A stretch of 64,000 nucleotides of DNA from an uncultured Clostridia bacterium (GTDB lineage Bacteria; Bacillota; Clostridia; Oscillospirales; Oscillospiraceae), in contig CAMNOV010000002.1 of the NCBI GenBank assembly GCA_946547105.1, positions 5,055 to 69,054 of the forward strand. Reading direction: 5' to 3'. Below, piece after piece: positions 1,714 through 40,369 of this stretch. How positions within the stretch are numbered: position 1 is the first letter of the stretch; each line of letters starts with the position of its first letter. The position numbers and the translations under genes are program-made. The notes under the pieces were generated by a model, which saw nothing but the letters and a program-made list of their open reading frames with translations, ran no database searches and was not told where the DNA came from.

Positions 1714-1736
1714 TCCGCAAATAATGCAATGAGAAG

Positions 1737-1766: not shown

Positions 1767-1780
1767 ATATAGAGGAAATC

Positions 1781-4023: not shown

Positions 4024-4070
4024 TGTTTTTGTTTCGCATTATAAAACTGGATAATCTGCTGATGATTGAC

Positions 4071-4104
4071 AAAAGCGGCCCAGACAACGGGGCCGCTTTT
4101 CTGT
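4071..4104 (+). terminator. intrinsic terminator closing the kinase/PqqD/NTase unit
   Basis: aaaaGCGGCCC-agacaacg-GGGCCGCtttt hairpin with a T-tract. Confidence 0.7.
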
Positions 4105-4163
4105 TCATGTCTACGAAATCCTTGTATTTTCCTGGTTTTTACTTCTAATCAATGTGTTTCTTG

Positions 4164-4192
4164 TTGCATTTTATTGCTTAAAAATGTATAAT
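4164..4192 (+). promoter_or_regulatory. near-consensus sigma-A type promoter heading the glycan operon
   Basis: TTGCAT (4164-4169), 17-nt spacer, TATAAT (4187-4192), located in an AT-rich 140-bp gap directly upstream of the ABC exporter gene. Confidence 0.55.
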
Positions 4193-4239
4193 CGATAATT
4201 GGATTGATATGGTCAAATGATAGTGGGTGGAGAAGCGGC

Positions 4240-6024: not shown

Positions 6025-6048
6025 CAGACCGAGCAAGGAGATCCCCGC

Positions 6049-6795: not shown

Positions 6796-6824
6796 TTAAT
6801 GCAAGACTATAAGAGGAATGAGCT

Positions 6825-7700: not shown

Positions 7701-7703
7701 GAG

Positions 7704-9185: not shown

Positions 9186-9208
9186 TACGATCCGGGAAGG
9201 ATACAGGT

Positions 9209-15572: not shown

Positions 15573-15594
15573 AAAACTGAGAGGGGACTGTTCA

Positions 15595-16578
15595 TTGCAG
15601 CTTTCATTTCTAATAAAAGAAAGAATTCATCTTTTTAATCAAAATATAAAAAAATATAATACTATCAATTACTGCGGATTTGCACCCTTATTATATGTGC
15701 GCTTTTGGGTTGATGAGATTTTTTCTTTCTTTTTCTTTGGCGCCAGCCCCGATGATTATTTTAGATATGAATTCTATAGAAAGTCTTTGTCTGAGCGGAA
15801 TAACTTCATAACGTTTTTAAAAAGCAAAAAGCTTATCAAAAAGTTTAATAGCGAGGACATCGTTCGAAAAATAAACAGTAAAGATGAATTAAATCAGTTG
15901 TTTTCTTGCTATTTACACCGAGAATGGTTGGATTTGGATTCAGCAAATAACGATGCTTTTTCTGATTTTTTATGCAGACATAAGAAGATTATTCTAAAAC
16001 CTAAAACTGGTTCCGGTGGAAAGGGTATTTTTGTCTTATCGCAAGAGGACGTTTCTATCCAAAGAAATGGACTTGAAGAGTATAGAGGATACATAGCGGA
16101 AGAACTTTTAAACCAGCATCAGGCTCTATCGAAAATTAATCCAAGTTCAGTTAATAGCATTAGAGTTATGACTTTTCGTGGAACTATTCTATCTGCTGTA
16201 TTAAAGGTTGGACGTTTAGGGTCAGTTGTAGATAATATGAGCTCTTCAGGGCTGTATGGTAATATAGACTTAGATTATGGAGTAACCAATTCGGTTTTCC
16301 ACGATATTAAATTAAATAACTATTATTACCATCCAGACACAAACGAGAAATTAATAGGACTAACTATTCCTCTGTGGAATGAAGTCAAACAAATTGTTGC
16401 TGAGGCTTCAAAATGTGTCCCAGACTTACAGTATTGCGGTTGGGATATAGCTGTTTTGCCAGATAAGGTAGCTATTATAGAAGTTAATGCTTCTCCAGGG
16501 CATGATTTGTCGATCCAGTCAACACTTCAACAAGGTATTTATAATAAAATACAACAAGAATTAAAGAAAAAGAGTTAA
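15595..16578 (+). CDS. TupA-like 'sugar-transfer associated' ATP-grasp protein
   Basis: TTG start with RBS GAGAGGGGA. 'ILKPKTGSGGKGIFVL', 'IAEELL.QH' and 'IRVMTF' fit the ATP-grasp fold, and the N-terminal region 'DDYFRYEFYRKS' is typical of the TupA-like family. Very AT-rich gene. Confidence 0.65.
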   Translation: MQLSFLIKERIHLFNQNIKKYNTINYCGFAPLLYVRFWVDEIFSFFFFGASPDDYFRYEFYRKSLSERNNFITFLKSKKLIKKFNSEDIVRKINSKDELNQLFSCYLHREWLDLDSANNDAFSDFLCRHKKIILKPKTGSGGKGIFVLSQEDVSIQRNGLEEYRGYIAEELLNQHQALSKINPSSVNSIRVMTFRGTILSAVLKVGRLGSVVDNMSSSGLYGNIDLDYGVTNSVFHDIKLNNYYYHPDTNEKLIGLTIPLWNEVKQIVAEASKCVPDLQYCGWDIAVLPDKVAIIEVNASPGHDLSIQSTLQQGIYNKIQQELKKKS

Positions 16579-19841: not shown

Positions 19842-19917
19842 TAAATGCGTTCGTCGGTGATTGCACAGCCGGTTAGAGGGAGCTGTACCGCATAAAAACC
19901 TTCAGGAGGTCTGTGAA

Positions 19918-20766
19918 ATGGGTAATACACTGCGTGAACTGCAGCTTTGTGAACTTCAGATATTGAAAGATGTCAGGATAATCTTTGAGCGACACGGTCT
20001 GAAGTACTATCTCAGTGGAGGAACGCTTCTCGGTGCCGTGAGACACAAAGGTTTTATCCCCTGGGATGATGACATCGATATTATGATGCCGTATGAAGAC
20101 TACCGACGGTTTCTGGAAGTAGCGCAGGAAGAACTGGGAGACAAATATTTTGTTCAGAACAGTGAAACCGATCCAAGCTATGCTTTCGCATACACGCACA
20201 TCAGAAAAAATAATACAACAGTATTAAGTGAGTGGGATAAATTATACTTCTCTCACCACGGAGCATGGATTGATATAACACCGTTAGTACATGTAAAAGG
20301 TAAAAGAGATCGCCGTTTCAAAAATTTTCTTCTTCGAATTTGCTATTTCCTCATCATGGAAGAGAATGCTTTCAAAGTTACTGAGGAATGGCTGGTGAAA
20401 CAGAGCAGCGCAAGAATGGTACGCTTGGTCAAGCTGGTGCGGAAACTGCCGGAATCGCTGCGGAGATGGATCCGAAAAAGACTGCTGCACGTGGTCATAT
20501 ATGAAAAACGGGGCAAGCTCATCAGCTTTATCTGGTCAAGGCTGTCCGTGCCCATTCCGGCCGAGGCCTATGAAGGAGAGCCAGTTTTGCTTCCGTTTGA
20601 AGACGACGTTTTTCCAGCTCCAAAGGGTTATGAGCAGTTCCTAACCATGTCTTATGGAGACTATATGACGCCTCCACCGCCAGAAAGACAGAATGGCGGG
20701 CATGGAGCAAAACTGACCATCGATCTTGAGCACGATTGGACAGAGTATTGTAATGATTTGAATTGA
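19918..20766 (+). CDS. licD: LicD-family phosphotransferase (copy 1)
   Basis: Start at ATG 19918 (RBS AGGAGGtctgtgaa). 'LSGGTLLGAVRHKGFIPWDDDIDIMMP' and C-terminal 'YGDYMTPPPPE' are LicD hallmarks. Confidence 0.85.
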   Translation: MGNTLRELQLCELQILKDVRIIFERHGLKYYLSGGTLLGAVRHKGFIPWDDDIDIMMPYEDYRRFLEVAQEELGDKYFVQNSETDPSYAFAYTHIRKNNTTVLSEWDKLYFSHHGAWIDITPLVHVKGKRDRRFKNFLLRICYFLIMEENAFKVTEEWLVKQSSARMVRLVKLVRKLPESLRRWIRKRLLHVVIYEKRGKLISFIWSRLSVPIPAEAYEGEPVLLPFEDDVFPAPKGYEQFLTMSYGDYMTPPPPERQNGGHGAKLTIDLEHDWTEYCNDLN

Positions 20767-20917
20767 CATTTTTGTTTTTTCATATCTATAACCCGCCGCC
20801 GGATAAACGGAAGCCGCGCTTCCCGCTTCTCGTCAATTTCGAGCGGGAGTATGATTCGTCTGAAGAAGGCGGATTTAAATGGGAAAAAGTTTTTTGAAAT
20901 ATTGATTGGTAGTTATT

Positions 20918-21757
20918 ATGAGTAAAGTAATTAGCATTCCGAAGGAAGATATGCATAAAATGCATTTAATGCAATTGGAAATGCTTTCGGAATTGGACCG
21001 CGTCTGCAGACAAAATAATATAAATTATACAATATGTAACGGGACCTTGCTTGGTGCAGTCAGACACGGAGGATATATTCCGTGGGATGATGACGCCGAC
21101 ACAATGATGTTGAGAGAAGACTATGAGAGATTCAAGGAATGCTCTAATCAGTTGGACCCTAGTATCTGCTTCTTTCAGGATAATTCTACAGATCCCGGAT
21201 ATCGATGGGGATATGGAAAATTAAGAAGAACTGGTACATCTTATGTTAGAGCTGGCCAAGAGCATCTTAAAGGGAAAACAGGTGTCTTTATTGATATTTT
21301 CCCCGCAGATGATATTCCCAATTCAAAAACCGGGGCTGAATTTCAACGTTTTTTTGCTTATGTTGCCAGAAAGATTCTATATTCGGAAGTTGCCAAGAAG
21401 AATACAACTGGAATAAAAAAATATTGGTTCCAACTTTTGTCATGTGTTTCTCCCCAAAATGTATTTAAAATGATGGAGATTTATACAAACAAAAGCAGAA
21501 ACAGTAGCAATAATAGAGTTACAGCCCTGTTTATGCCAATCAGTAAGCATGTTGATCCATATTCAGGAGAGCTTCTCTATGGAAGACCAAAAAAATGGTT
21601 ATTAGAATTAGATAATTATCAATTTGAAAATTTGAACCTCATTGGCCCTAAAGATTATGATAAATGTCTGAGATGGCAATATGGTGACGATTATATGACT
21701 CCGCCGCCAGAAGACAAACGTGGTCAGCATGCACCGGTATCAAGTTATTCGCTTTGA
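20918..21757 (+). CDS. licD: LicD-family phosphotransferase (copy 2)
   Basis: 'CNGTLLGAVRHGGYIPWDDDADTMM' and 'YGDDYMTPPPED'. Confidence 0.85.
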   Translation: MSKVISIPKEDMHKMHLMQLEMLSELDRVCRQNNINYTICNGTLLGAVRHGGYIPWDDDADTMMLREDYERFKECSNQLDPSICFFQDNSTDPGYRWGYGKLRRTGTSYVRAGQEHLKGKTGVFIDIFPADDIPNSKTGAEFQRFFAYVARKILYSEVAKKNTTGIKKYWFQLLSCVSPQNVFKMMEIYTNKSRNSSNNRVTALFMPISKHVDPYSGELLYGRPKKWLLELDNYQFENLNLIGPKDYDKCLRWQYGDDYMTPPPEDKRGQHAPVSSYSL

Positions 21758-21781
21758 TCATTGTTTAGCAAGGAGCTCAAC

Positions 21782-23050
21782 ATGAAGAACTGCGCAGGAA
21801 AAAGGCTTTTGCTTCTTGGCGGAAGCCATCCGTACTACAAAGTCGCAAAAGCAGCAAAAAAATACGGTATTCAAGTGGCCGTTGTTGATCAAAACGCCTC
21901 GGAAGAAGTACTCAGCATCTCCGATGACTATCTAAAATGTAGCCTATTGGATGTTGATACAATCAGCGATTGGTGCCTGAAGAACCCGGTTGATGGAGTA
22001 CTCAATTTCTGTATTGATTTTGCACAGAAGACTTATCTGGACATCTGTGAGCGTTTTCAATTGCCCTGTCTGTATACAAAAAAACAGGTTTCCGCACTTT
22101 CCGATAAATCAACATTTAAAAACTTGCTTCATGAGTGCGGATTAGAGATTATTAAAACATATTCCGAACAGGATATTTACAGCGATTTTGTGCATTTTCC
22201 GGTTATTGTCAAGCCGTCTGAAGCAAGCGGATCCCGCGGAAGCAAGACATGTTACAATAAAACTGAAGCCATAAAAGCGATAGACAACGCAAAAAAGGAG
22301 TCTCGCAATGGTGAGATCATTATTGAAGAGTTTATAGAAGACGGATCTGAGTTTCAAATCACTTTTTTCGTTCAAGATGGACATGTATGCGTTATTAGAA
22401 CTGCAGACAGTTATGAGGGGGAAAAGCAGTATGGATTAGAGCGCGTTGTATCATGCGCTGTATCGCCTTCTGTTTTTACGGAAGAATACTTCTTGCAAAC
22501 GCATAAGATGGTTCTTGAATTTGTTAGAAGGCTTGGGTTACGTTACGGTCCTTTTTTCATGCAGGGGTTTTATCATCACGGTTCGTTCAAGTTTTTTGAT
22601 CCAGGTTGCCGATTCCCTGGAGTGAATTTTGATTCTGTTTTCATCAGTGAATACGGAGTTGATCTTGCTGAACTGATGGTTGAATTCTCACTTTTTGGTA
22701 CAATGTCCTCTTTTTCGGTCCCGGAGAATATGTATCAATTAAACGGAAAAACAGCTGCAGTTATTTTTCCCTTTATCAAAAAAGGCCAAATTGCATCAGT
22801 TTCTGGTCTGGAGTGGTTGGAGAATAATAAAAGCATCTTTTCTGTATCAAAACGGCATTGTATAGGAGACATAATAGGACAGACTTTAGATGTAAATCAA
22901 CGCTTTGGAGAAATCGATTTAATTGGAGATAATATAGGAAAAATAAAACAACTGATAAACAATATCAATTCAAAACTCCATGTTTATGACCTTTCCGGTA
23001 GCGAAATGACTTATGCTCATTTTAATACAGAGAGGATTCAAAATAATTAA
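21782..23050 (+). CDS. ATP-grasp domain carboxylate-amine ligase-like protein
   Basis: Start at ATG 21782 (RBS AAGGAGctcaac). 'GKRLLLLGGS....KVAKAAKKYGIQVAVVD' is a pre-ATP-grasp Rossmann-like domain; 'FPVIVKPSEASGSRG' and 'IIEEFIEDGSEF' are ATP-grasp motifs. Confidence 0.65.
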   Translation: MKNCAGKRLLLLGGSHPYYKVAKAAKKYGIQVAVVDQNASEEVLSISDDYLKCSLLDVDTISDWCLKNPVDGVLNFCIDFAQKTYLDICERFQLPCLYTKKQVSALSDKSTFKNLLHECGLEIIKTYSEQDIYSDFVHFPVIVKPSEASGSRGSKTCYNKTEAIKAIDNAKKESRNGEIIIEEFIEDGSEFQITFFVQDGHVCVIRTADSYEGEKQYGLERVVSCAVSPSVFTEEYFLQTHKMVLEFVRRLGLRYGPFFMQGFYHHGSFKFFDPGCRFPGVNFDSVFISEYGVDLAELMVEFSLFGTMSSFSVPENMYQLNGKTAAVIFPFIKKGQIASVSGLEWLENNKSIFSVSKRHCIGDIIGQTLDVNQRFGEIDLIGDNIGKIKQLINNINSKLHVYDLSGSEMTYAHFNTERIQNN

Positions 23051-23085
23051 CTTGTTCTAGTTGATGAGTTGTTAGGAGCGTAAAG

Positions 23086-24114
23086 ATGAATAATACTATT
23101 GTCGCAAAACTAATTTCAATGGAAGACATCTTAGCTGCTGGCTGTTTTGATGTTAGCGATACAATTCAGATAATTGAAGATGCCCTGGTCGCATATAAAA
23201 ACGGAAAAGTGTTGTTGCCAGATAAAATATCACAGGTTTTTGATACAAAGACGCAAAATAGAATCAATTGTATGCCAGCGACTCTTCTGGATGAAAGAGT
23301 ATGCGGAGTAAAGTGGGTTTCTGTTTTTCCCGGTAATCCTGTCCAGTATAGTTGTCCAAATGTTTCAGGAACGATTATCCTTTCTGAGTTGGAAAAAGGA
23401 TATCCGTTTGCTATTATGGACGGAACCTTTATTACTGCTTTTCGCACTGCTTGTATGGGCGCTATTGGCACTAAATATTTGGCCAAGAATCACTGTGAAG
23501 TTCTCGGAATAATAGGAAGCGGTGAACAAGCCAAGATGCATTTGATTACTATAAAGACTGTGCATCCAGAAATAAAACTGTGTCGGGTTGCCTCTCGAAG
23601 CATAGAAAGCGAAAAGCGATTTGTTCAGCAGATGCAGCAACGCTTTCCGGATATGCTTTTTGAAACTTGCTGCTCCGACTATGAAATGGCCTCGTCCGGG
23701 GCGGATATAATTGTTACAGCGGTCAGCTGCCAAGCACCGTTATTGAAGGCAAGAACAATAAAAAAAGGTGCGCATTATTGTCATGTGGCTGGTTGGGAGG
23801 ATGAATTAGAGGTGCCTCTTATGGCAGACAAAATCGTTTGTGATCAGTGGGAAGCTGTAAAGCATCGTACTCAAACGATCAGCCAATTATATAAACTTGG
23901 ACGGCTAAAGGACGCAGATATTTATTCCGATATTGTTGACATCATAGATGGAACAGTGCCGGGCCGTGAGACAGACGATGAATTTACATATTTTAATTCG
24001 GTTGGTCTTGCATACATAGATGTAGCGGTTGCTTATCATTTCTATAAAAAGGTTCTTTCTAGAGGACTTGGCATAGACTGGAAAATGAAGAGCAGCAATT
24101 TCTTAGAACAATAA
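23086..24114 (+). CDS. ornithine cyclodeaminase / mu-crystallin family dehydrogenase (SbnB/opine-dehydrogenase-like)
   Basis: '...AFRTACMGAIGTKYLAK......GIIGSGEQAKMHL' is the typical OCD-family Rossmann segment, and the overall length of 342 aa fits the family. Confidence 0.65.
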   Translation: MNNTIVAKLISMEDILAAGCFDVSDTIQIIEDALVAYKNGKVLLPDKISQVFDTKTQNRINCMPATLLDERVCGVKWVSVFPGNPVQYSCPNVSGTIILSELEKGYPFAIMDGTFITAFRTACMGAIGTKYLAKNHCEVLGIIGSGEQAKMHLITIKTVHPEIKLCRVASRSIESEKRFVQQMQQRFPDMLFETCCSDYEMASSGADIIVTAVSCQAPLLKARTIKKGAHYCHVAGWEDELEVPLMADKIVCDQWEAVKHRTQTISQLYKLGRLKDADIYSDIVDIIDGTVPGRETDDEFTYFNSVGLAYIDVAVAYHFYKKVLSRGLGIDWKMKSSNFLEQ

Positions 24115-24171
24115 TTGCAAGCACAAAATAGTATCTATCGATCGTCCTAAGAAGAAAAATGGGAGAATCAT

Positions 24172-25245
24172 ATGTTGAATTTTACTGTCGGCCCGGTGAT
24201 GTCGGACGAAAGAGTCCTGGAGATCGCGAGCCATTCGAGTCCATATTTTCGCACGCCGGAGTTTTCCACGCTGATGAAGGAGAACGAAGCGCTGATGCTC
24301 CGCTTCCTGTCGGCGCCGGCGGGCAGCCGCTGCGTGTTTCTGACCAGCTCCGGTACCGGAGCGATGGAATCCCTGGTTATGAACATCCTGAACGACCGGG
24401 ACAAGGTCCTCGTCGTCAACGGCGGCAGCTTCGGCCAGCGCTTTGCGGAGCTCTGCCGGCTGCACAAGAGAAATATGACGGAGATCAAACTCGACTACGG
24501 CCATGCGCTTCGCCGTGAACAGCTGGAGCCCTTTGCCGGCTGCGGATATACCGCGCTGCTGATCAATATGCACGAGACCTCGTCGGGTGTTTTGTATGAT
24601 ATGCCGATGATCTCCTCTTTCTGCAAGGAGCAGGGGATCCTCCTGCTCGTGGATGCGATCAGCGCCTTCCTGGCGGACGAGCTTGACATGACGGCTCTCG
24701 GCGCTGCGGCGGTGATCACCGGCTCGCAGAAGGCGCTGGCGGTGCAGCCGGGCATTTCCGTCGTCGCGCTTGCCCCGGCCGCGCTGGAACGAGTGGCTGC
24801 GAATGAAGAAGTCTGCATGTATCTGAGCCTGAAGGAAGCGTTGAAAAACGCCGAGCGCGGGCAGACGCCCTTTACTCCCGCGGTGACGACACTGCTGCAG
24901 ATCCACGCCCGGCTGAAACAGATCGAGGCGGACGGCGGACCAGCGGCGGAGCGGCAGAAGATCGCCGGGGTCGCCCGACAGCTGCGGGCGGGGATCGCCG
25001 ATCTGCCGCTGACCAATATCTCGGAGAGCCCCTCCAACGCGGTGACGGCCCTCCATCCCGAAAACGTTCCGGCGACTGAGATCATCCGCGTCCTGAAGGA
25101 CGAGTATCGGATCTGGGCCTGCCCGAACGGCGGCGCGATGGCTGACAAGGTCTTCCGGATCGGGCACATCGGCCACATCACGGAACAGGACAATCAGACG
25201 CTGATCGACGCCCTGCACGACATGAAGAACAGAGGATTGCTGTAA
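24172..25245 (+). CDS. class-V (PLP) aminotransferase
   Basis: 'LNFTVGPVMSDERVL', 'LTSSGTGAMESLVMN' and 'ITGSQKALAVQPGIS' (PLP-Lys region) match the Ser/Ala-glyoxylate, PhnW and SerC type fold-I class V pattern. Confidence 0.75.
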   Translation: MLNFTVGPVMSDERVLEIASHSSPYFRTPEFSTLMKENEALMLRFLSAPAGSRCVFLTSSGTGAMESLVMNILNDRDKVLVVNGGSFGQRFAELCRLHKRNMTEIKLDYGHALRREQLEPFAGCGYTALLINMHETSSGVLYDMPMISSFCKEQGILLLVDAISAFLADELDMTALGAAAVITGSQKALAVQPGISVVALAPAALERVAANEEVCMYLSLKEALKNAERGQTPFTPAVTTLLQIHARLKQIEADGGPAAERQKIAGVARQLRAGIADLPLTNISESPSNAVTALHPENVPATEIIRVLKDEYRIWACPNGGAMADKVFRIGHIGHITEQDNQTLIDALHDMKNRGLL

Positions 25246-25266
25246 CGCGGAAAGAGAGGCTGTTCC

Positions 25267-26637
25267 ATGGTAAAAGTCATTACATACGGAACCTATGATC
25301 TCCTGCATTATGGACATATCCGTTTGCTGCAGCGGGCCAAGGCGCTGGGCGATTATCTGATCGTCGGCGTGACGGCGGACGATTTTGACCGGAAACGGGG
25401 CAAAATCAACGTTCAGCAGTCGCTGATGGAACGGATCGAGGCGGTCAAGGCCACCGGTCTTGCCGACGAGATCATCGTGGAAGAATACGAAGGGCAGAAG
25501 ATCGACGATATCCGGAAATATCACATCGATATTTTCACGGTCGGATCCGACTGGGTCGGGGTTTTCGACTATCTGCGCGAATACTGCCAGGTCGTCTATC
25601 TGCCTCGTACGAAGGGCGTTTCCAGCTCGGAACTGAGGACGGAGAAACAGAAGCTCCGCTTCGGCCTGGTAGGGGAAGCGGCCTATCTGAATAAATTTGC
25701 CCGGGAATGCAGCTTCGTCAACGGGACGCAGATCGTCGGCGTCTGCTCCGAAACGAAGGAGGAGGCGGGGAAGCTCGGCGAGTATCCGGTCCTTACCGAT
25801 GATCTGAACGAGCTGCTGGACCAGTCCGATGCGGTCTATATCACGTCACATCCCAGCCTGCACTTTGAGCAGATCCGTCTTGCCCTGGAAAAGGGCAAGC
25901 ACGTTTTGTGCGAAGCCCCGCTTGCTTTGAACGAGGCGCAGCTCCGGGAGCTTTCCGAACTGGCCGGCAAAAACGGCTGTATTCTGACGGAAGGCTTGAA
26001 AACCGCATATTCAACGGCATACACCCGGCTGATCCTGCTTGTGAAGGGCGGGGCCATCGGAAAACCTGTTTCCGTGGATGCGACATGTACCAGCCTGCGC
26101 GATCTATCCGCCATGACGGAGGAGGATCTGAACCGCTATTGGAATACCATCTGCGCCTGGGGCCCGACGGCAATGCTTCCCGTGTTTCATATTCTCGGCA
26201 CCGATTGGCGGGAGAGCAGGATCACGACCAAGCTGCTGGATGGAAGCAACGATTTTGACGTTTTTTCCAAAATCGATTTTACCTATTCGGATGCAGTCGC
26301 TACGGTTAAGGTCGGCAAGGGGATCAAGTCCGAAGGCGAGCTGATCGTCTCCGGCACGAAGGGATATATTTATGTTCCCGCACCCTGGTGGAAGACGGAC
26401 TATTTCGAGGTCCGCTACGAAAACCAGACTGAGAACAAACGGTATTTTTATCAGCTGGACGGCGAGGGCATCCGTTATGAGATCTCGGCCTTCCTGCGGA
26501 TGATCCGCTATGGGAACGGGGATTATTATATTTCCCGGGAAATCAGCAGAGGCTTTGCCCGGCTGATGCAGCAGTTTTATCACGGAGACTATACCTGTCT
26601 TGGCAGCAGCCTCATGAAAGCTGAAGACGAGCCTTGA
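25267..26637 (+). CDS. fusion: TagD-like glycerol-3-phosphate cytidylyltransferase (N) + Gfo/Idh/MocA-family oxidoreductase (C)
   Basis: N-terminal ~130 aa 'VITYGTYDLLHYGHIRLLQRAKALGDYLIVGV..DDF....K' and 'VGSDW.G.FDYL...C.VVYLPRT.GVSSS.LR' are close to B. subtilis TagD. Residues ~135-456, 'LRFGLVG.......F......V.G.QIVGV' and 'EKGKHVLCEAPLA', form a Gfo/Idh/MocA Rossmann domain. Confidence 0.8.
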   Translation: MVKVITYGTYDLLHYGHIRLLQRAKALGDYLIVGVTADDFDRKRGKINVQQSLMERIEAVKATGLADEIIVEEYEGQKIDDIRKYHIDIFTVGSDWVGVFDYLREYCQVVYLPRTKGVSSSELRTEKQKLRFGLVGEAAYLNKFARECSFVNGTQIVGVCSETKEEAGKLGEYPVLTDDLNELLDQSDAVYITSHPSLHFEQIRLALEKGKHVLCEAPLALNEAQLRELSELAGKNGCILTEGLKTAYSTAYTRLILLVKGGAIGKPVSVDATCTSLRDLSAMTEEDLNRYWNTICAWGPTAMLPVFHILGTDWRESRITTKLLDGSNDFDVFSKIDFTYSDAVATVKVGKGIKSEGELIVSGTKGYIYVPAPWWKTDYFEVRYENQTENKRYFYQLDGEGIRYEISAFLRMIRYGNGDYYISREISRGFARLMQQFYHGDYTCLGSSLMKAEDEP

Positions 26638-28868: not shown

Positions 28869-28919
28869 TTGCTAAGGAAAACAGCATTTCTAAACTTCAT
28901 TACAGATCGGAGAACATCC

Positions 28920-30017
28920 ATGACAGTATATACCTGGATGGTCGTCCTGCTGTTGTTGGCAGCCCTACTGCTCAATGGCAATAAAAAAGGAAATATCAAA
29001 TTTATATTGATCGCATTCCTGCTGGTTTTTGCTGTGCTTGGCCTGCGGAACGTCAATACCGCCGGTTTGGATTCATCAGGCGCTTCCGGCTCTTATCCTG
29101 TCATTTTCCGGCGATATGGGCAGACGGCATGGGGGGCTCTATACAGCGAAGGCGGTGAAAACTTCAATATCGGTTTTAAGTATTTATCAAAAGGGCTGTA
29201 TGAGCTAACAGATGGCGATTACCAGCTGTATGTTACGATACTGATGTTTTTCGTCATTTTTTCCTACATGCGTTTTATCAAAAAGTATTCGCCCTCTCCG
29301 CTTCAGAGCGTTCTTTATTTGCTTGGACTTTTGTATTTTACGCTTTTGATGGATGCGCTGAAGCAGGCGCTGGCCATGTCCGTCCTTCTGTTTGCATTTG
29401 ATGCGATCTTTGAGAAAAAGCCTGTCAAGTTTGTCCTGCTTGTGCTGCTGGCGGCCTCTTTCCATTTTCCTGCGCTGGTTTTTCTGCCTGCCTACTGGCT
29501 GGCAAAAATGCGGGTGGGAAGGAATTACCTGCTCCTGCTTGCTCTGATCCTCATTGTGACCTATTTCTTCCGTGAGCAGATCCTGAATCTGATGCTGAGC
29601 GCTTACGGCGGAGAGGATGTCAACGCTAGTCTGGAGGGCATACGTTTTCTACGAAATAAGGCTGTTATTATGATCGTCATCGTTGTAGCGGCGGTGACCC
29701 TCCGGCCTCCGACCGAGGGCGACTCGGTTTACAATGCCTGCCTGGTGTTCACCGGTGTTGCTATCGTGATCCAGACTTTCTGCGGCTACAACAACATTTT
29801 TGAACGCCTGGCCGACTATTATTTCCATACTGCGATCATTTTTATCCCGCTGGTATTTGAAAAATGCGCTCTGAAACGACATGCTCTGGATCTTGGAACA
29901 GAACTGATGATTAAAGAGCTTGGAACGCCAATTTTCTGCGCGTTCGCGATATGGCGCTTCCTATCGACCGTCAACAATTCGTGGTATTATTCGGGCATTC
30001 AGATGCTGTGGCAGTAA
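28920..30017 (+). CDS. EpsG-family polytopic membrane protein (Wzy-type polymerase candidate)
   Basis: Start at ATG 28920. About 10 predicted TM helices. 'MDALKQALAMSVLLFAF' resembles the EpsG-family R/KQ..A motif. Confidence 0.65.
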   Translation: MTVYTWMVVLLLLAALLLNGNKKGNIKFILIAFLLVFAVLGLRNVNTAGLDSSGASGSYPVIFRRYGQTAWGALYSEGGENFNIGFKYLSKGLYELTDGDYQLYVTILMFFVIFSYMRFIKKYSPSPLQSVLYLLGLLYFTLLMDALKQALAMSVLLFAFDAIFEKKPVKFVLLVLLAASFHFPALVFLPAYWLAKMRVGRNYLLLLALILIVTYFFREQILNLMLSAYGGEDVNASLEGIRFLRNKAVIMIVIVVAAVTLRPPTEGDSVYNACLVFTGVAIVIQTFCGYNNIFERLADYYFHTAIIFIPLVFEKCALKRHALDLGTELMIKELGTPIFCAFAIWRFLSTVNNSWYYSGIQMLWQ

Positions 30018-30028
30018 AGGAACAAAGC

Positions 30029-31069
30029 ATGTTGATCAGCGTGATCATTCCGGCCTATCAATGCGCCGATACAATTGAAAAAACAGTAGACAGTATCCTC
30101 GCATCCGGCCTTTCTGATGTTGAAATCGTTATGATTGACGACGGGTCACAGGATGGAACGGCAGAACACTGCGATTCTATTGCAGAGAAGTATCCCTGTG
30201 TTCGCTGCATTCATCAGAAGAACGCAGGCGTCTCGGCGGCCAGAAACAGGGGCTTGAAAGAGGCGAGGGGAGAATATGTCTGGTTTTTTGACGCTGATGA
30301 CAGTGTAGATGAGAACGCTTTGTCTGATGCAGAATCTATCCTAATAAAAGCTTCGCCGGACATGCTTGTGTTTGGAATGAGCTTTGACCATTACAGTAAG
30401 GGGAAGCGATATCGCCGGGATGAACTGCTCCCGCCTTTGGAAGGCCCGGCACACACAGGGGAACTAAGCACTGAATTGTTTATGTTGTATCAAAAAAATG
30501 TGCTCAGTTCTCTTTGCAACAGAATTATAAAAAGAAACATTCTTGTACAGATGCACCAGTGGCTTCGTGAAGACATGTTTCTGTATGAAGATATGGAGTT
30601 CACACTTCGCATTTGGAAACACTGCGAAAATGTGTATTTCCTCAGAGAGCCGATTTACCGTTATCGTCAGGCGGAAGACGGAGGAAATGCCGGGCGCAGA
30701 TTGATGAGGATACCTCATATCCCGGCGCTTCTCGATCAGATCGAAGCGGCTCTGGATGGCGTGGCGGACAAGAACAGGATCCTTCTGTCCCTGTGTCTGA
30801 CCCTGGCAAGAGAAAAAATCAGCGCTGCATCCGTGACTGACATCGAAACAGTCTGCACGGATTTTAAACAATGGGTCGATGCGCATGATCTGCTGCCTGA
30901 GATCCAAAACAGGGAATATGCCATGCGGATCTATGATGCGAGGATAATCAGCCTCGTTGTAAAAAGAAACATCAGCAAGATCCGGCATCGGGCGGCCAAC
31001 TGGGTGAAGCGGAATATCGGAGATTTCAGAAAATGGACTTATGGTTCCGGTAAGGAAGGAAAACAATAG
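30029..31069 (+). CDS. GT2-family glycosyltransferase
   Basis: Start at ATG 30029 (RBS AAGGAAcaaagc). 'ISVIIPAYQCADTIEKTVDSIL', 'VMIDDGSQDGT' and 'FFDADD'. Confidence 0.85.
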   Translation: MLISVIIPAYQCADTIEKTVDSILASGLSDVEIVMIDDGSQDGTAEHCDSIAEKYPCVRCIHQKNAGVSAARNRGLKEARGEYVWFFDADDSVDENALSDAESILIKASPDMLVFGMSFDHYSKGKRYRRDELLPPLEGPAHTGELSTELFMLYQKNVLSSLCNRIIKRNILVQMHQWLREDMFLYEDMEFTLRIWKHCENVYFLREPIYRYRQAEDGGNAGRRLMRIPHIPALLDQIEAALDGVADKNRILLSLCLTLAREKISAASVTDIETVCTDFKQWVDAHDLLPEIQNREYAMRIYDARIISLVVKRNISKIRHRAANWVKRNIGDFRKWTYGSGKEGKQ

Positions 31070-31932
31070 TGGAACAAGGAAAATACTATAAGCTTATAAC
31101 TTCTGATTCAAGAAACAATTATTTCAATTTCAGAGAGGTCTGGCAATACAAGGATATGATCCTGCTGCTTGTCAAGCGCAATTTCGTATCGCGGTATAAG
31201 CAGACGATCCTGGGCCCGGCCTGGGCGGTGATCCAGCCGCTGCTCACAACGATCGTGTTCACTTTTATCTTCGGCAACGTTGCCGGACTTGCCAACTGCG
31301 GCACTGTGCCGACCTTCCTGTTTTATATGTGCGGCAATATTGCCTGGCACTTTTTCTCCGGATGTCTGAGCGGCACGGCCAATACTTTTGTTTCAAATCG
31401 CGGGATCATGGGCAAGGTTTATTTCCCGAGAATCAGTATGCCCATTGCTACGGTACTCAGCAACCTGATCGGTTTTGGGATCCAGTCTGCCATGTTTCTT
31501 GCCTTCCTTGTGATTTATCATTTCGTTCCCGGCTATAGCATCGGAACAAACTGGTATGTGCTGATGGCTCCTCTCCTTATCTTGGAGGCTGCCGTTTTGG
31601 GTCTGGGCTGCGGTATCATCATCTCTGCGATGACCACAAAATATCGGGATCTTCAGTTTCTGGTTTCTTTCGGCGTGTCACTTTGGATGTATGCAACTCC
31701 CGTGGCCTATTCCATGGATCTGTTTGAGGGCTCTGCAGTTCTGTATATCATCGCCCGGGCCAACCCCATGTCTCCGATCGTTGAAATGCTGCGTTACGGA
31801 TTTCTCGGCGGGGAAGCGGGCTCTGTCGACTGGATGTCCTACGGCTGGTCCTGGATCTTCACCCTGGTCATACTGACTTGGGGCGTCTCTCTGTTCAACA
31901 AGGTGGAACGCACCTTTATGGACACCGTCTGA
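31069..31932 (+). CDS. tagG: ABC-2 type polysaccharide/teichoic-acid export permease (TagG/Wzm-like)
   Basis: GTG start overlapping the upstream TAG by 1 nt. 'LLLVKRNFVSRYKQTILGPAWAVIQPLLTT.VFTFIFG' is the canonical Wzm/TagG N-terminus. 6 TM helices. Confidence 0.85.
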   Translation: MEQGKYYKLITSDSRNNYFNFREVWQYKDMILLLVKRNFVSRYKQTILGPAWAVIQPLLTTIVFTFIFGNVAGLANCGTVPTFLFYMCGNIAWHFFSGCLSGTANTFVSNRGIMGKVYFPRISMPIATVLSNLIGFGIQSAMFLAFLVIYHFVPGYSIGTNWYVLMAPLLILEAAVLGLGCGIIISAMTTKYRDLQFLVSFGVSLWMYATPVAYSMDLFEGSAVLYIIARANPMSPIVEMLRYGFLGGEAGSVDWMSYGWSWIFTLVILTWGVSLFNKVERTFMDTV

Positions 31933-31976
31933 GCACGGATCGGAACAAATTTGATTTCATCAGTAGGGTAACAACG

Positions 31977-33263
31977 ATGGCTGAAGATATTTTGAGAATT
32001 GATCATATCAGCAAAGAATACCGTCTCGGCATGATCGGCGGCACGACACTCCGCGATGAGCTGCAGCGTCGGCGCGCCAAACGGAAAGGGCTGGAGGATC
32101 CAACCAGCAAGATCGGCGACAAAAACGTCGGCAGAATAGGCGAAACTTTCCTCGCTTTGGACGACGTCAGTTTTACCGTAAAGCATGGTGAGCGTATCGG
32201 GATCATCGGGCACAACGGCGCGGGCAAATCCACACTGCTCAAGCTGATCTGCCGGATCACGGCGCCGACCAAAGGAAGCATCGAGATGAACGGAAGGATC
32301 GCTTCCATGCTCGAAGTCGGAACCGGCTTTCACCCGGAGCTCAGCGGCAGGGAGAACATCTACATGAACGGCGCGATCCTCGGCATGACCAAGGCCGAGA
32401 TCGACAAAAAGATCGAGGAGATCATCGACTTTTCCGAATGCCGACAATTCATCGACACCCCGGTCAAGCGCTATTCCTCCGGCATGTATGTCAAGCTGGC
32501 CTTCTCCGTGGCGGCTCATTTGGATTCCGAGATCATGATTATGGATGAGGTGCTGGCCGTCGGCGACATGGCTTTCCAGAGAAAATGCATCGCAAAAATG
32601 AGCGAGATTTCCAAAGCTCAGGGAAGAACGATCCTGTACGTCAGCCATAATATGGGGACTATTAGACAGCTTTGCGACAGATGCATTGTGCTGGATCATG
32701 GACACTTGATTTTTGATGGTGATGTCGATAAAGCTATTTCTCTGTATTTGGATACCAATATTGAGGAAAAAACTCATTACAGTTTCAGAGATAATACTAA
32801 CAGTAAAGACGTTGTTACCGGGGAAGTTAAGGTACAGGAGCTGGAAATACTGGATAAAACAACTATGTTTTATTTCGGTTCCAGAATGAAGGTATCGTTA
32901 GTGGTTGATGTCCATAAAGCAGTGGAAAGTCTGCAATTCAGGTTTATTTTTCTCACATCCGGCGGAATGGCTGTTGCTGCTACGACAACTGAAAGAGTAT
33001 GTCTTCAAGCCGGCAAAAATCAAAGATTGAATTTCGAACTGGATATTTCCCATTTGGCGCCGGCGTGTTATTATGTAAAGATCATCGCTGCGGAAATTGA
33101 TGATGCCGGAATTCAAATCAGACACGATCGTGTAGCACAGGCTTTTGCATTTACTATCCAGAACTTTGATGGACTAAGGCCAGTTAAGTGGGATTGTACA
33201 TATTGGGGGAATTATGCGATTGATCTCACCAAGACTTTAGGAGAGACAGCAGAAATATCATAG
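31977..33263 (+). CDS. tagH: polysaccharide/teichoic-acid export ATP-binding protein (TagH/Wzt-like) with ~180-aa C-terminal beta-rich extension
   Basis: Start at ATG 31977. 'LRIDHISKEY', Walker A 'GHNGAGKST', signature 'YSSGMYVKLAF' and Walker B 'IMIMDEVLAVGD'. Residues ~250-429 resemble a Wzt C-terminal carbohydrate-binding domain. Confidence 0.85.
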   Translation: MAEDILRIDHISKEYRLGMIGGTTLRDELQRRRAKRKGLEDPTSKIGDKNVGRIGETFLALDDVSFTVKHGERIGIIGHNGAGKSTLLKLICRITAPTKGSIEMNGRIASMLEVGTGFHPELSGRENIYMNGAILGMTKAEIDKKIEEIIDFSECRQFIDTPVKRYSSGMYVKLAFSVAAHLDSEIMIMDEVLAVGDMAFQRKCIAKMSEISKAQGRTILYVSHNMGTIRQLCDRCIVLDHGHLIFDGDVDKAISLYLDTNIEEKTHYSFRDNTNSKDVVTGEVKVQELEILDKTTMFYFGSRMKVSLVVDVHKAVESLQFRFIFLTSGGMAVAATTTERVCLQAGKNQRLNFELDISHLAPACYYVKIIAAEIDDAGIQIRHDRVAQAFAFTIQNFDGLRPVKWDCTYWGNYAIDLTKTLGETAEIS

Positions 33264-33396: not shown

Positions 33397-35508
33397 TTGA
33401 AACAGGGCAGCAAAAAAAACATGTTATATTCGCAATATTTCTCCCAATATTTCCTGGACACCTGGGGGATCGAAGCGGATGCGGAACTGAAAACTGAGCT
33501 TGTTTCGCCTAAGACGCTTCTGACTGCCAACCGGTTGGATCTGGCCTGCAAGCTTTACTTTATTGACTGCCTGGAAAAAAAGGTGGATATGAGCTTCGCA
33601 AGGCAGCTGTATCAGGCCCATCTTGCGGCTTTTTCCGGCGGAAGTTTCGTGGAACCCGGACAGAACGCCAAGAACTCCCCGCAGGACTATTATGACAGCT
33701 TTTGCCGCTTGATCGATGACATGCGGGAGCATGGCTTCGATCAAGCACGGTCTGTCGTGCCTGTCGGTGACAATGGTGCGATCCTGGACGGGGCCCATCG
33801 TGTCGCGATTGCAATCTATTACAATATTCCGCTTAGCATCGTCCGCATTCCTGGCCAAAGCTGCCGCTATGATTACGCCTATTTCCGGGATAAGAGCCTT
33901 CCGGAAGAGTATCTGGACTTTATGGCGTATCAGTTTATCCGATTTTCCGAGCGGGTCTATACGGTTTGTTTGTGGCCGGCTGCCGATCAGCCGGAAAAAC
34001 TGACCGAAGCGGATCGTTTGATCCGCCGCTATTCCTCCGTCGCGTATCGGAAAACAATCGCGTTGAACTACAATGCGGTAGAGCAACTGATGATCAGCTT
34101 TTATCACAGCATGTCCTGGACGGGCTCTATAGACAACGGATTCCGCGGCGTGGCCTCCAAGGCAAAGGATTGCTTCCGGGCTAAATCGCTGACAAATGTA
34201 TATATAATCTGCGACGTGGATTTGGAGCGGGTGCTGGAACTCAAGCAGCGCATCCGGGACCTGTATGCCATAGACAATTCCTCTGTCCACATCACCGACA
34301 CCCATGCCGAGGCGATCGAGGCAGGAAAACTGCTGCTGTTTCGCAACAGCATCGACCTGATGAATGCCCGAAATCCTTTTCGTGACGCTGATTTCATCGA
34401 GGTTTTTTCTTCCAAGGAAAAGGTTTTCCAGCACTGCTCCTGCCCGGATACGACGTTGGCCCTCTATGGGATCGGCGCTCATTGTTTGAGCGATGGATGC
34501 GGAGATACGACCGACTGGGAGGATCCGAAGGATTATTTTTATTTCTGGGGCGTGAAGATGCCGTCGCTCAGTTGCGTAAAAGCAATCAGGCAGCGGAGCG
34601 GCAGCCCGGAAGATCGGGAGGACGTGCGCCAGATCGAGGCCTTTGAGCGGGAGAGACGCAGCGGCTTTACCGCGTGGAAAGAACGGGCAGGACAGACGGC
34701 CCGGAGCTTCTCTCAGCGCCTGCAGCGCGCTTTCCGTACGATGCGCGCAGAGACCGTCCGAGCGGCTAAGATTTTCTATCACCGATTTAAATACAGGAAA
34801 ATCGGTCCGGGTTCCGGGAAACGGAACGTGATGGATCTAAAGTACGTTTTTTTGAATATCAACACGACGACGGCCGATTATCTTGTGATGCGCAACTGGG
34901 AGGGATTCTATGACGATATCCTTCTGGAAGGGCATAACGATATTGATATCCTCTGCCGGGACCGCGACAGCCGCGATATCATCGTTCGTCTTTTGGACGC
35001 CAGACCCCTGACACCGGACGGCTTCCATTACAGTTTCCAGTATCAGGGCAGGGCTGTCACGCTTGATACGCGAATCATGGGGGACGGCTACTATGACCGT
35101 CGCTGGCAGCGTGATATGCTGAAAACGAAAAAACTCCATCCGCAGGGTTTCTATATTATGAACCCGGAGAATTACTACTATTCTCTGATCTATCACGCGA
35201 TTTACCAGAAAAAAACCGGTCTGTCTGAAGAGTATTTGCAGCGGCTCAATCAAATGTCTGACGCTGACATCGTGTTGGCACAGAATGAGTTCGCTTCCCG
35301 GCTGGATGATTTCATGCGGGCGAAGCACTATGTTTATACCCAAACCGAAGATCAAAGCGTGACGCTGAATTTCACGATTACGCCTTTCAAAAAAGAAATC
35401 TGCTATCCGTTCGCTATTCGCCTTCGTCACTTTGTGCAGCATGTGAAAAGGAAGCACTTGCTTCAGCGTTTGAAGATCAGGATTCGAAAGATGGTTATCA
35501 GGAGTTGA
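33397..35508 (+). CDS. large hypothetical two-part protein (703 aa)
   Basis: Start uncertain: TTG 33397 after GGGGGAAGAGAG, or ATG 33421. The N-terminal part has 'VPVGDNGAILDGAHRVAIAIY', a ParB/Srx-like DGxHR-type motif. The C-terminal part has 'EGHNDIDILCRDRD', minimal-nucleotidyltransferase-like. No family confidently recognised. Confidence 0.55.
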   Translation: MKQGSKKNMLYSQYFSQYFLDTWGIEADAELKTELVSPKTLLTANRLDLACKLYFIDCLEKKVDMSFARQLYQAHLAAFSGGSFVEPGQNAKNSPQDYYDSFCRLIDDMREHGFDQARSVVPVGDNGAILDGAHRVAIAIYYNIPLSIVRIPGQSCRYDYAYFRDKSLPEEYLDFMAYQFIRFSERVYTVCLWPAADQPEKLTEADRLIRRYSSVAYRKTIALNYNAVEQLMISFYHSMSWTGSIDNGFRGVASKAKDCFRAKSLTNVYIICDVDLERVLELKQRIRDLYAIDNSSVHITDTHAEAIEAGKLLLFRNSIDLMNARNPFRDADFIEVFSSKEKVFQHCSCPDTTLALYGIGAHCLSDGCGDTTDWEDPKDYFYFWGVKMPSLSCVKAIRQRSGSPEDREDVRQIEAFERERRSGFTAWKERAGQTARSFSQRLQRAFRTMRAETVRAAKIFYHRFKYRKIGPGSGKRNVMDLKYVFLNINTTTADYLVMRNWEGFYDDILLEGHNDIDILCRDRDSRDIIVRLLDARPLTPDGFHYSFQYQGRAVTLDTRIMGDGYYDRRWQRDMLKTKKLHPQGFYIMNPENYYYSLIYHAIYQKKTGLSEEYLQRLNQMSDADIVLAQNEFASRLDDFMRAKHYVYTQTEDQSVTLNFTITPFKKEICYPFAIRLRHFVQHVKRKHLLQRLKIRIRKMVIRS

Positions 35509-39490: not shown

Positions 39491-39535
39491 AGTTCATCGG
39501 GAAAGGTTCTTTGTCAGACATACTTGGGAGGATCT

Positions 39536-40369
39536 ATGACACTTCGGGAGATTCAACTATATAAGCTTGGCATGATGAAAGATATCGCATCTATCTGCGA
39601 TCAGCACGGGATCAAATACATATTGCATTATGGGACATTGTTGGGCGCGATCCGTCACGGCGGTTTTATTCCCTGGGATGATGACGTTGATCTGGCGATG
39701 GCATGGAATGATTTCAAGAAACTGATTCAGATTTTGAATTGTGATTATTCAGATCGGTATTTTGCGCAGAGTATCTGGACGGAGGAGAGGTTTCCGCTTC
39801 TTTGGATGCAGATCCGAGCGAACGGAACGACCAGCATGCCTGTCGATTACGCATCTTATGATATCCATTGGGGGATGTGCATTGATGTTTTTGCACTTGT
39901 GGCTGCAGAGATCGACGAAAAGAAAAAGAGAAAAAGAGAAAAGATTATTCATCTGGTCAAATTGTTTCTTGAGAATGATTATCGGGAGATGACAAATCAA
40001 GAATTAAAAGGAAGAAGACTGAAACTGATTAATCGTATCCCGCGGGGAATACGGCGTCTGATTATTAGGACACTTTTGAAAGCAGTGGCCAGTGATCCGC
40101 AGGAAAATGGCTTTGTTTCCCCGCTTCAAAATCCCAAAAGAATTTATGCATATGCTGATATTATGAATACGGAAAAGCACGTCTTTGAAGGCCTGCTTTT
40201 CGATATTCCAAAGGGTTTTGAAAATGTGTTAAAGACCGAATACCGGGACTACATGACATTGCCGCCGGAAAACCAGCGTGGTGGACATGAGCTGGCTTTG
40301 GGTAGGATCATCAATGACGCAAACAAGGACTACAAAGAGTATCAGGCGGAACTGAAAGCAAACACATAG
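39536..40369 (+). CDS. licD: LicD-family phosphotransferase (copy 3)
   Basis: Start at ATG 39536 (RBS GGGAGGAtct). 'HYGTLLGAIRHGGFIPWDDDVDLAM' and 'YRDYMTLPPEN'. Confidence 0.85.
   Translation: MTLREIQLYKLGMMKDIASICDQHGIKYILHYGTLLGAIRHGGFIPWDDDVDLAMAWNDFKKLIQILNCDYSDRYFAQSIWTEERFPLLWMQIRANGTTSMPVDYASYDIHWGMCIDVFALVAAEIDEKKKRKREKIIHLVKLFLENDYREMTNQELKGRRLKLINRIPRGIRRLIIRTLLKAVASDPQENGFVSPLQNPKRIYAYADIMNTEKHVFEGLLFDIPKGFENVLKTEYRDYMTLPPENQRGGHELALGRIINDANKDYKEYQAELKANT

Follow-up and report, generated by a model that had tools for sequence, protein, structure and literature searches.

We analyzed a window of 64,000 nucleotides (nt) from an uncultured Clostridia bacterium of the family Oscillospiraceae (assembly GCA_946547105.1, contig CAMNOV010000002.1, positions 5,055 to 69,054 of the forward strand), in which a glycan island contains the 2 adjacent genes that are the subject of this study. 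The first gene encodes an aminotransferase dependent on pyridoxal phosphate (PLP), and the second encodes a fusion protein in which a cytidylyltransferase domain resembling TagD is followed by a domain with the Gfo/Idh/MocA fold. We refer to the 2 genes as the cassette. An initial annotation had predicted that they provide a new amino-polyol donor activated with cytidine diphosphate (CDP). The features of the cassette, with domain borders in amino acids (aa), are as follows:

24172..25245, + strand: class-V (AGT/PhnW-like) PLP aminotransferase, 357 aa; Pfam Aminotran_5 (PF00266), E 2e-18; predicted to make an amino-alcohol phosphate
25267..26637, + strand: fusion protein, 456 aa, TagD-like cytidylyltransferase followed by a Gfo/Idh/MocA-fold domain; CTP_transf_like at aa 5-125, GFO_IDH_MocA at aa 131-243
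25267..25644, + strand: cytidylyltransferase domain of the fusion protein, aa 1-126; TagD-like, predicted to make the CDP-activated head group
25654..26637, + strand: Gfo/Idh/MocA-fold domain of the fusion protein, aa 130-456; degenerate active site, probably not a canonical dehydrogenase and possibly a scaffold or binding module

Both open reading frames (ORFs) were verified at these positions, and the Pfam matches and the gap of 21 nt between the genes agreed with the initial annotation. The start codon of the fusion gene is preceded by AGAGAGG, a motif resembling a Shine-Dalgarno sequence. As previously described, the pair follows genes of lower guanine plus cytosine (GC) content: both cassette genes have 54-58% GC versus 38-44% in the genes immediately upstream, with corresponding values of 0.54-0.58 across 24-27 kb and 0.38-0.44 across 20-24 kb of the window. 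Long antisense ORFs were noted over the GC-rich aminotransferase gene, both in the window (24103-25524, - strand, 473 aa) and in 2 of the related loci described below (L009, L039); these represent a composition artefact.

The ORF for the class-V aminotransferase is intact, and the functional residues were invariant across 56 aligned orthologs, namely Q186-K187, including the Schiff-base PLP lysine K187, the PLP aspartate D161 and the C-terminal anion-binding arginine R329. The protein scored below the cutoff of every NCBIfam equivalog model, with 144 bits for the PhnW-AepZ model TIGR03301 (cutoff 361), 104 bits for TIGR02326 (cutoff 401), 139 bits for BhcA (cutoff 650) and about 44 bits for SerC. 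Its sole close solved relative was PDB 3f0h (E 1e-120), which is deposited as 'Aminotransferase' with no function stated, and which we take to be a structural-genomics entry from Eubacterium rectale without an assigned function. PDB 6pd1 and the PhnW structures were also among the solved relatives. No match to a phosphoenolpyruvate (PEP) mutase or a phosphonopyruvate decarboxylase was obtained among the island proteins scanned, at 0.2-44 kb. A phosphonate pathway leading to 2-aminoethylphosphonate (AEP) was rejected on account of this result and of the scores below the PhnW cutoffs.

The 2 domains of the fusion protein were recognized by Pfam with E values of 1.4e-18 (CTP_transf_like, PF01467) and 1.5e-17 (GFO_IDH_MocA, PF01408), and the AlphaFold2 model had a mean pLDDT (predicted local distance difference test) of 83. 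The protein contains the HxGH motif in the form HYGH (aa 14-17), RTKGVSSS (aa 114-121) and VYLPRTKGVSSS. Residues 1-126 aligned to TagD of Bacillus subtilis (PDB 1coz) with an E value of 7.5e-36 and 60 identical residues out of 125 (48%). The motifs and the level of identity uphold the relationship to TagD given in the initial annotation, whereas the statement that the domain is very close to TagD was overstated, since the score for the NCBIfam TagD equivalog model TIGR01518 was 116.3 bits, under the cutoff of 165.4.

Alignments to 1coz and 2b7l placed an arginine opposite K44 and a glutamate opposite W74 of TagD, with K46 kept and with an insertion of a single residue; K44, K46 and W74 are substrate-region residues of the B. 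subtilis enzyme. The TagD segment EKNWEQK is represented by EEYEGQK, with each position at least 90% conserved in the family alignment, and the domain is set apart from TagD and TarD by the family motifs RGK(I/L)NV and EEYEGQKIDDI. The motifs RGK(I/L)NV and EE(Y/H)xGQKI are common to relatives that are paired with an aminotransferase and relatives that are not, and E74 was for this reason rejected as specific evidence for amine binding. The cytidylyltransferase domain is unusually conserved, with a mean pairwise identity of 0.83, or 83%, in an alignment of 195 fusion proteins from several phyla. The conservation values given below for the fusion protein refer to the same alignment.

Distribution of the cassette

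The protein search for relatives of the fusion returned at least 8000 scored candidates, none of them with an E value above 0.001. The combination of PF01467 and PF01408 was present in all of the 120 matches listed. In a scan of one genome per species, at least 553 stretches were found to encode a relative of the fusion. We analyzed 80 loci among these (59-65% identity), which span Lachnospiraceae, Oscillospiraceae, Bacteroidales/Prevotella, Treponema, Elusimicrobia, Akkermansia, Lentisphaeria, Selenomonadales and Methanobrevibacter. The fusion architecture is abundant and widely exchanged, and the rarity implied by the initial annotation proved wrong: gut microbes very commonly encode this architecture. 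The cassette is carried by many lineages of the gut and rumen, among them Ruminococcus albus, Prevotella, Akkermansia, Treponema and Methanobrevibacter.

Neighboring genes were counted by clustering of the ORFs located at most 8 kb from the fusion gene in the 80 loci, combined with tblastn searches with the proteins of the window. A class-V aminotransferase was encoded in 53 of the 80 loci (51 recognized by ORF clustering, with L009 and L039 added by tblastn), mostly directly upstream of the fusion gene. Another 20 loci instead contained a HisC-like class I/II aminotransferase of about 353 aa, which scored 228-240 bits for TIGR01141, just below the cutoff of 276.6, and 143-158 bits for the CobD decarboxylase model. 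The 2 types did not co-occur in any of the 80 loci. After removal of 3 loci that were incomplete upstream, an aminotransferase of either type was present in 73 of the 77 informative loci, the remaining loci being L043, L059, L060 and L062. A chance neighborhood is hard to uphold because the pairing recurs across phyla and because one class of aminotransferase has been replaced by another. The aminotransferase and the fusion are a genuine, conserved functional pair, as the initial annotation had proposed together with a database search for this architecture and its neighbors.

The association with LicD phosphotransferases was also sustained. The island in the window encodes 3 LicD paralogs, in agreement with the initial annotation:

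19861..20766, + strand: LicD-family phosphotransferase 1; Pfam LicD, E 3.6e-39; predicted to transfer a phospho-head group from a CDP donor
20906..21757, + strand: LicD-family phosphotransferase 2; Pfam LicD, E 9.4e-44
39524..40369, + strand: LicD-family phosphotransferase 3, at the far end of the island; Pfam LicD, E 1.4e-33

A LicD gene was located near the pair in about 45 of the 80 loci, and a TagF-like Glyphos_transf gene in 5. Orthologs of LicD 2 (52-57% identity) adjoin the cassette in L007, L020, L031, L055, L067 and L070. A GNAT acetyltransferase was encoded close to the pair, and mostly directly adjacent to it, in 12 loci, and genes resembling Octopine_DH (L034, L041, L075, L091-L093) or ornithine cyclodeaminase (OCD; L071 and the window) were found beside it in 8 further loci. 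Among closer relatives, the fusion in L100 is accompanied by genes for 3 LicD proteins, an ATP-grasp protein, a GNAT protein and an aminotransferase, and a metagenomic relative (L101, 2220-3563) encodes a protein in which LicD and GNAT are fused. Two distant members of the subfamily of the window that lack the catalytic lysine discussed below show related arrangements: P0143 is accompanied by Aminotran_5 and 2 LicD genes, and P0145 by Octopine_DH and Aminotran_1_2, with a gene for a GT2-Glyphos_transf protein nearby. A search of plasmids recovered mainly unrelated Gfo/Idh/MocA proteins, the one useful match being the megaplasmid pRUMAL01 of the cultured strain R. albus 7 (L094, NC_014824.1 343780-349550), where the gene order is LicD, class-V aminotransferase (WP_013483592.1), fusion (WP_013483593.1), LicD, GNAT and LicD.

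It was also noted that a gene for a polysaccharide pyruvyl transferase, followed by an FrhB/ferredoxin-like gene, is often located just upstream of the pair (L005, L008, L016, L026, L027, L030, L032, L035, L051, L073 and others). Some loci contain a pair of genes for a thiamine pyrophosphate enzyme and an epimerase in place of the FrhB-like gene upstream of the cassette.

The Gfo/Idh/MocA-fold domain and its catalytically intact relatives

The second domain of the fusion protein has the 2-domain organization of the Gfo/Idh/MocA fold, with a Rossmann half and an alpha/beta C-terminal half, and Foldseek aligned it to 3e9m, 4had, KijD10 and GnnA with target-normalized template-modeling (TM) scores of about 0.83. 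The dehydrogenase site within this fold is degenerate. In HMMER alignments, the sequence CEAPL is located opposite the EKP motifs LLEKPF, VCEKPL, LVEKPF and ILEKPA of 4 PDB homologs, and position 217, which corresponds to the lysine of this motif, was occupied by serine (117), alanine (47), threonine (28) or proline (3) in the 195 members, and by lysine in none. The motif GGSxxELGSY is replaced by WNSICAWGPT or WNTICAWGPT. Within this segment, the acid position 297 was alanine in 126 of the 195 members and D or E in 39, while the Tyr/His position 301 was threonine in 156, with neither Y nor H among the 6 commonest residues. For KijD10, which was one of the nearest matches in structure, the mutant structures K102A, K102E and Y186F have been deposited; K102 and Y186 are presumably the Lys and Tyr positions in question.

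The central glycine of the GxGxxA motif was mostly substituted (S100/A26/T19) and was retained in just 8 members. The Rossmann half was the least conserved part of the fusion protein, with a mean pairwise identity of 0.47, compared to 0.62 for the C-terminal half. The dinucleotide-binding framework still has G133, G136, H199 and E216, of which G133 and G136 are invariant, and the invariant or near-invariant positions also include N152, G153, K245, R254, G262, W292, N293, W298 and the block PAPWWKTDYFE. These patterns indicate that the domain is not decaying, yet a canonical dehydrogenase activity is very unlikely. Database names for the fusion are restricted to 'Gfo/Idh/MocA family oxidoreductase' and 'adenylyltransferase/cytidyltransferase family protein', of which the former is misleading for a protein that has lost its redox site.

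To this degenerate group we compared relatives of the domain collected in an exhaustive, profile-free search, which provided 167 representatives at E <= 1e-30. Aligned relatives with 31-41% identity keep the motifs GTGRIA, CEKP and GGSFTELGSY. The intact relatives occur as stand-alone proteins (about 325 aa) and as fusions, either to the special cytidylyltransferase domain that is also present in the window or to glycerophosphodiester phosphodiesterase (GDPD), metallophosphoesterase or LicD domains. No adjacent aminotransferase gene was found in the 5 gene contexts of intact relatives (L081-84, L089, L095, L096/97 and L098/99), 4 of which contained LicD or TagF-like genes. The intact member in L081-84 is a Gfo protein of the stand-alone type, located beside a cytidylyltransferase-Gfo fusion that carries CENP. 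The pattern is reciprocal: where the dehydrogenase site is intact the aminotransferase is missing, and where the site is degenerate the aminotransferase is present, such that loss of the redox site tracks the gain of a partner enzyme. The intact relatives that are associated with LicD and lack an aminotransferase probably work as cytidylyltransferase-oxidoreductase synthases of CDP-polyols, possibly of an unusual CDP-glycerol isomer. The Gfo-like domain of the window is probably a relic of such an ancestral cytidylyltransferase-dehydrogenase that has been kept as a scaffold or binding module.

Several of the intact relatives are multi-domain proteins (P0168-P0176, P0189, P0195, P0221 and P0275), the largest with 4 domains and 1240 aa. 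The genes in L081-L084 (approximately 1645-9660) encode flagellin, GT2, an unknown protein of 324 aa, the CENP fusion, the intact Gfo protein with CEKP, LicD and an unknown protein of 274 aa, and may provide a phospho-polyol decoration of a flagellin glycan. In L098/L099 (1332-7356), an intact fusion adjoins genes for a T7-like RNA polymerase (RPOL_N, RNA_pol) and an Exostosin-like glycosyltransferase, which may represent a viral context.

Proposed pathway and alternative explanations

We suggest, with about even confidence and on the basis of sequence comparisons, that the cassette is portable and provides a CDP-activated amino-alcohol phosphate with a C3 skeleton for transfer by LicD, the most likely product being CDP-serinol (CDP-2-amino-1,3-propanediol). 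Starting from the domain identities, the intact PLP site, the degenerate dehydrogenase site and the conserved synteny, we infer the following order of reactions. The PLP aminotransferase would transaminate dihydroxyacetone phosphate (DHAP) to serinol phosphate, which the TagD-like domain would join with cytidine triphosphate (CTP) to form CDP-serinol. The LicD paralogs, or TagF-like enzymes in some genomes, would then move phospho-serinol onto a polysaccharide, yielding a zwitterionic phosphodiester decoration, and in some loci the amine might be modified by the neighboring GNAT, opine-dehydrogenase-like or ATP-grasp proteins. An amine-bearing head group fits both the GNAT and opine-dehydrogenase-like neighbors and the LicD-GNAT fusion. 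The ancestor would have been a bifunctional enzyme, combining cytidylyltransferase and reductase activities to supply a CDP-polyol for LicD-type transfer; in the lineage of the window, the aminotransferase would have taken over the ketone, with loss of the reductase site.

The ketone is most likely DHAP because the TagD-like skeleton, together with the fusions of relatives to GDPD, points to glycerol phosphate chemistry. HisC-type enzymes aminate 2-oxo-propyl phosphates, and the HisC-like nature of the interchangeable aminotransferase is a further reason to favor DHAP. A precedent is provided by Cj1437 of Campylobacter jejuni, which converts DHAP to (S)-serinol phosphate for the capsule (PMC12096443). 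The initial annotation had offered amination of a phosphorylated precursor before activation as its second route, and this is the route that fits better, given the replacement by a HisC-like enzyme in 20 loci and the Cj1437 precedent. Alternatively, CTP and DHAP might give CDP-dihydroxyacetone that is then transaminated.

Several observations weigh against CDP-serinol as the product. The identity of the keto substrate is drawn solely from the family resemblance of the aminotransferase, and a natural phospho-serinol glycan was not found in the searchable literature. The motifs that distinguish the cytidylyltransferase domain from TagD are also present in relatives without an aminotransferase, and are for this reason not specific for an amine substrate. 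Furthermore, purifying selection on the Gfo-like domain is clear, and the domain may have an unrecognized catalytic role.

Such a role was envisaged in the first route of the initial annotation, according to which CDP-glycerol would be formed from glycerol-3-phosphate, oxidized at C2 by the fused Gfo-like domain to CDP-dihydroxyacetone, and transaminated to CDP-serinol. The fusion of the 2 domains, the conservation of the second one with a fold like those of the nucleotide-sugar enzymes KijD10 and GnnA, and the retained dinucleotide-binding framework are all in line with this route, as is the combination of dehydrogenase and aminotransferase, which is standard in nucleotide-sugar pathways. We nevertheless consider it rather improbable because the catalytic residues have been lost: the lysine is substituted in all 195 members, the acid and the tyrosine in most, generally by alanine and threonine, and the Rossmann half with its altered glycine motif evolves fastest. 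Oxidation would also be unnecessary, DHAP already being an abundant ketone. Moreover, the aminotransferases for nucleotide-linked substrates and amino sugars belong to the DegT family, and not to the class-V or HisC-like enzymes.

Could the head group be a different amine? Ethanolamine phosphate, phosphoserine or aminopropanol phosphate might be converted to CDP-ethanolamine or an analog for transfer by LicD, and we regard this as unlikely, though the least unlikely of the alternatives. Human ethanolamine-phosphate cytidylyltransferase matched the cytidylyltransferase domain with an E value of 5.7e-17, but among solved structures TagD is much the closest (E 1e-35 versus 1e-17). Also in favor of a different amine, some members carry the JGI label 'choline-phosphate cytidylyltransferase', and the class-V aminotransferase comes nearest to AEP and glyoxylate transaminases. 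Against it, relatives of the Gfo-like domain, some with a cytidylyltransferase domain, are fused to GDPD, an indication of a glycerol (C3) skeleton; the alternative aminotransferase scores higher as HisC than as CobD; and the PEP mutase and decarboxylase had no match among the island genes. Finally, the product might be plain CDP-glycerol, 1- or 2-linked as for Gtp1-3 of Streptococcus pneumoniae, with the aminotransferase acting in an unrelated reaction, for instance in the synthesis of amino sugars. The domain has its best match in TagD, and the pneumococcal gtp1 ('glycerol-2-phosphate dehydrogenase'), gtp2 ('nucleotidyl transferase'), gtp3 ('phosphotransferase') and wchX genes are annotated such that gtp1, gtp2 and wchX resemble a split version of the fusion system (PMC3493582, PMC1391919). 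This explanation is highly unlikely in view of the aminotransferase in 73 of the 77 informative loci across phyla, with replacement by another class, and of the finding that the relatives without an aminotransferase are precisely those with an intact dehydrogenase site. In addition, amino-sugar transaminases are of the DegT family, as mentioned above.

The synthesis of CDP-serinol from DHAP was compared to known systems. TagD and TarD, acting with TagF or LicD, share with the cassette the cytidylyltransferase fold, the HxGH and RTxGISTT-type motifs and the LicD or TagF-like enzymes downstream, but differ from the enzyme in the window by its score under the equivalog cutoff, its substitutions at K44 and W74, its own motifs, the fusion to a Gfo-like domain and the near-constant aminotransferase partner. 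The C. jejuni HS:2 branch (the DHAP transaminase Cj1437, the ATP-grasp amidoligase Cj1438 and the phosphatase Cj1435) is similar in that it has a PLP transaminase for the capsule, with Cj1437 compared by its described activity, and in the ATP-grasp genes of the island. In HS:2, however, serinol phosphate is amide-linked to glucuronate and then dephosphorylated, without CDP activation or LicD transfer. The pathway to CMP-2-aminoethylphosphonate (PepM, Ppd, the class-V AEP transaminase and PntC, with the fusion in PDB 6pd1) likewise has a class-V aminotransferase whose product, a small amino-phosph(on)ate, is cytidylylated for transfer to a glycan. It differs in that the nucleotidyltransferase in the window is of the TagD type and not of the LicC/PntC type, as well as in the PEP mutase and decarboxylase not found in the island and in the PhnW cutoffs.

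The CDP-alditol synthases, such as Bcs1 of Haemophilus influenzae, TarI/TarJ for CDP-ribitol and the C. jejuni HS:5 system for CDP-6-D-glucitol, and also the S. pneumoniae Gtp1-3 proteins, couple a cytidylyltransferase to an oxidoreductase, whereas the subfamily in the window has lost the oxidoreductase site and gained an aminotransferase. Systems of the Bcs1/TarIJ type rely on IspD-type transferases together with SDR or MDR reductases. It is plausible that the subfamily with an intact site is homologous to the pneumococcal Gtp1-3 proteins, which were compared by product names only; no streptococcal entries were seen in name look-ups of 20 stand-alone relatives or among the named cluster members. 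In its overall logic, the cassette is akin to the systems that supply LicD with CDP-choline, CDP-glycerol or CMP-AEP, and to the CDP-alditol synthases of the Bcs1/TarIJ type.

Nothing relevant was found in the searchable literature on CDP-serinol, phosphoserinol, serinol phosphodiester polysaccharides or this combination of genes. The pathway appears to be uncharacterized, as the initial annotation had also stated for the fusion. If an amino-alcohol phosphate is installed, surface glycans would carry paired positive and negative charges, a feature that underlies the immunomodulatory properties of zwitterionic polysaccharides, and CDP-serinol would be a new nucleotide-activated CDP donor. More tentatively, and with some doubt, we suggest that hundreds of gut bacterial and archaeal species share a widespread, unrecognized phospho-serinol decoration, optionally N-acetylated, N-carboxyalkylated or N-aminoacylated, that arose when an aminotransferase displaced the ancestral reductase half and left a conserved pseudo-enzyme domain, with CDP-serinol as the new donor. 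It could also be speculated that (S)-serinol phosphate is a spatial analog of sn-glycerol-1-phosphate, and not of sn-glycerol-3-phosphate, which could explain the divergence of the cytidylyltransferase from TagD in both subfamilies.

The surrounding glycan island

The glycan island (approximately 14-41 kb) has a GC content of 0.38-0.54 and is set in a genome of about 60% GC. The M29 aminopeptidase in the flank shares 85-90% identity with proteins in metagenome-assembled genomes of uncultured Oscillospiraceae. On the + strand, the gene order starts with 2 Wzz/tyrosine-kinase genes, followed by genes for a metallophosphoesterase, a priming sugar transferase, an HpcH-like protein, a 2-hydroxyacid dehydrogenase, an AsnB-like protein, a sugar-transfer-associated ATP-grasp protein, GT4, GT4, GT2, LicD, LicD, an ATP-grasp ligase and an OCD/mu-crystallin protein. 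The cassette is located next, and is followed by genes for GT4, GT4, EpsG, GT2, Wzm, Wzt, an unknown protein of 703 aa, GT2 and GT2. The island ends with genes for acetyltransferases, DUF1919, the third LicD protein and a polysaccharide deacetylase. Two additional features are located between LicD 2 and the cassette:

21761..23050, + strand: ATP-grasp ligase, 429 aa; matches to ATP-grasp Pfam families; possibly a tailoring enzyme for acylation of the head-group amine
23086..24114, + strand: OCD/mu-crystallin protein, 342 aa; Pfam OCD_Mu_crystall, E 6.8e-61; below all NCBIfam cutoffs

Both are weakly tied to the cassette. Amine acylation is a possible role for the ATP-grasp ligase, while the OCD protein resembles alanine dehydrogenase/SbnB and may have a role in amine tailoring or amino-acid supply. 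ATP-grasp homologs adjoin the pair in L069 and L079, and in L100, which contains an 83%-identical relative, the ATP-grasp gene is located between the LicD genes and the aminotransferase gene. In L071, the OCD-like gene sits between the aminotransferase and fusion genes. The 2 genes were considered as core parts of the cassette, but this was rejected since they accompany the pair in few loci only.

The regions at 14001-16578 and 21761-24114 together encode 2 ATP-grasp ligases (one of them sugar-transfer associated), the AsnB-like protein and the OCD/alanine-dehydrogenase-like protein, a combination that suggests amide-linked amino-acid or amine substituents. The ATP-grasp ligases of the island recall Cj1438 of C. 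jejuni, the ATP-grasp enzyme that amidates glucuronate with serinol phosphate. Directly after the gene for the priming sugar transferase, a gene for an HpcH/HpaI aldolase-like protein (283 aa) overlaps a gene for a D-2-hydroxyacid dehydrogenase (337 aa; 12224-13989); this pair was not seen in related loci and may be involved in the synthesis of an acidic non-sugar substituent.

We noted that 2 ORFs have no Pfam match, at 33397-35508 (703 aa) and at 14001-15572 (523 aa), the latter with only a weak NCBIfam match to asparagine synthase. It was also noted that a single island contains 2 tandem Wzz/tyrosine-kinase genes (7704-10681), EpsG, a Wzy-like polymerase (28869-30017), and a Wzm/Wzt ABC exporter (31069-33263). 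Two assembly routes may be juxtaposed here, so that more than one polymer may be encoded.

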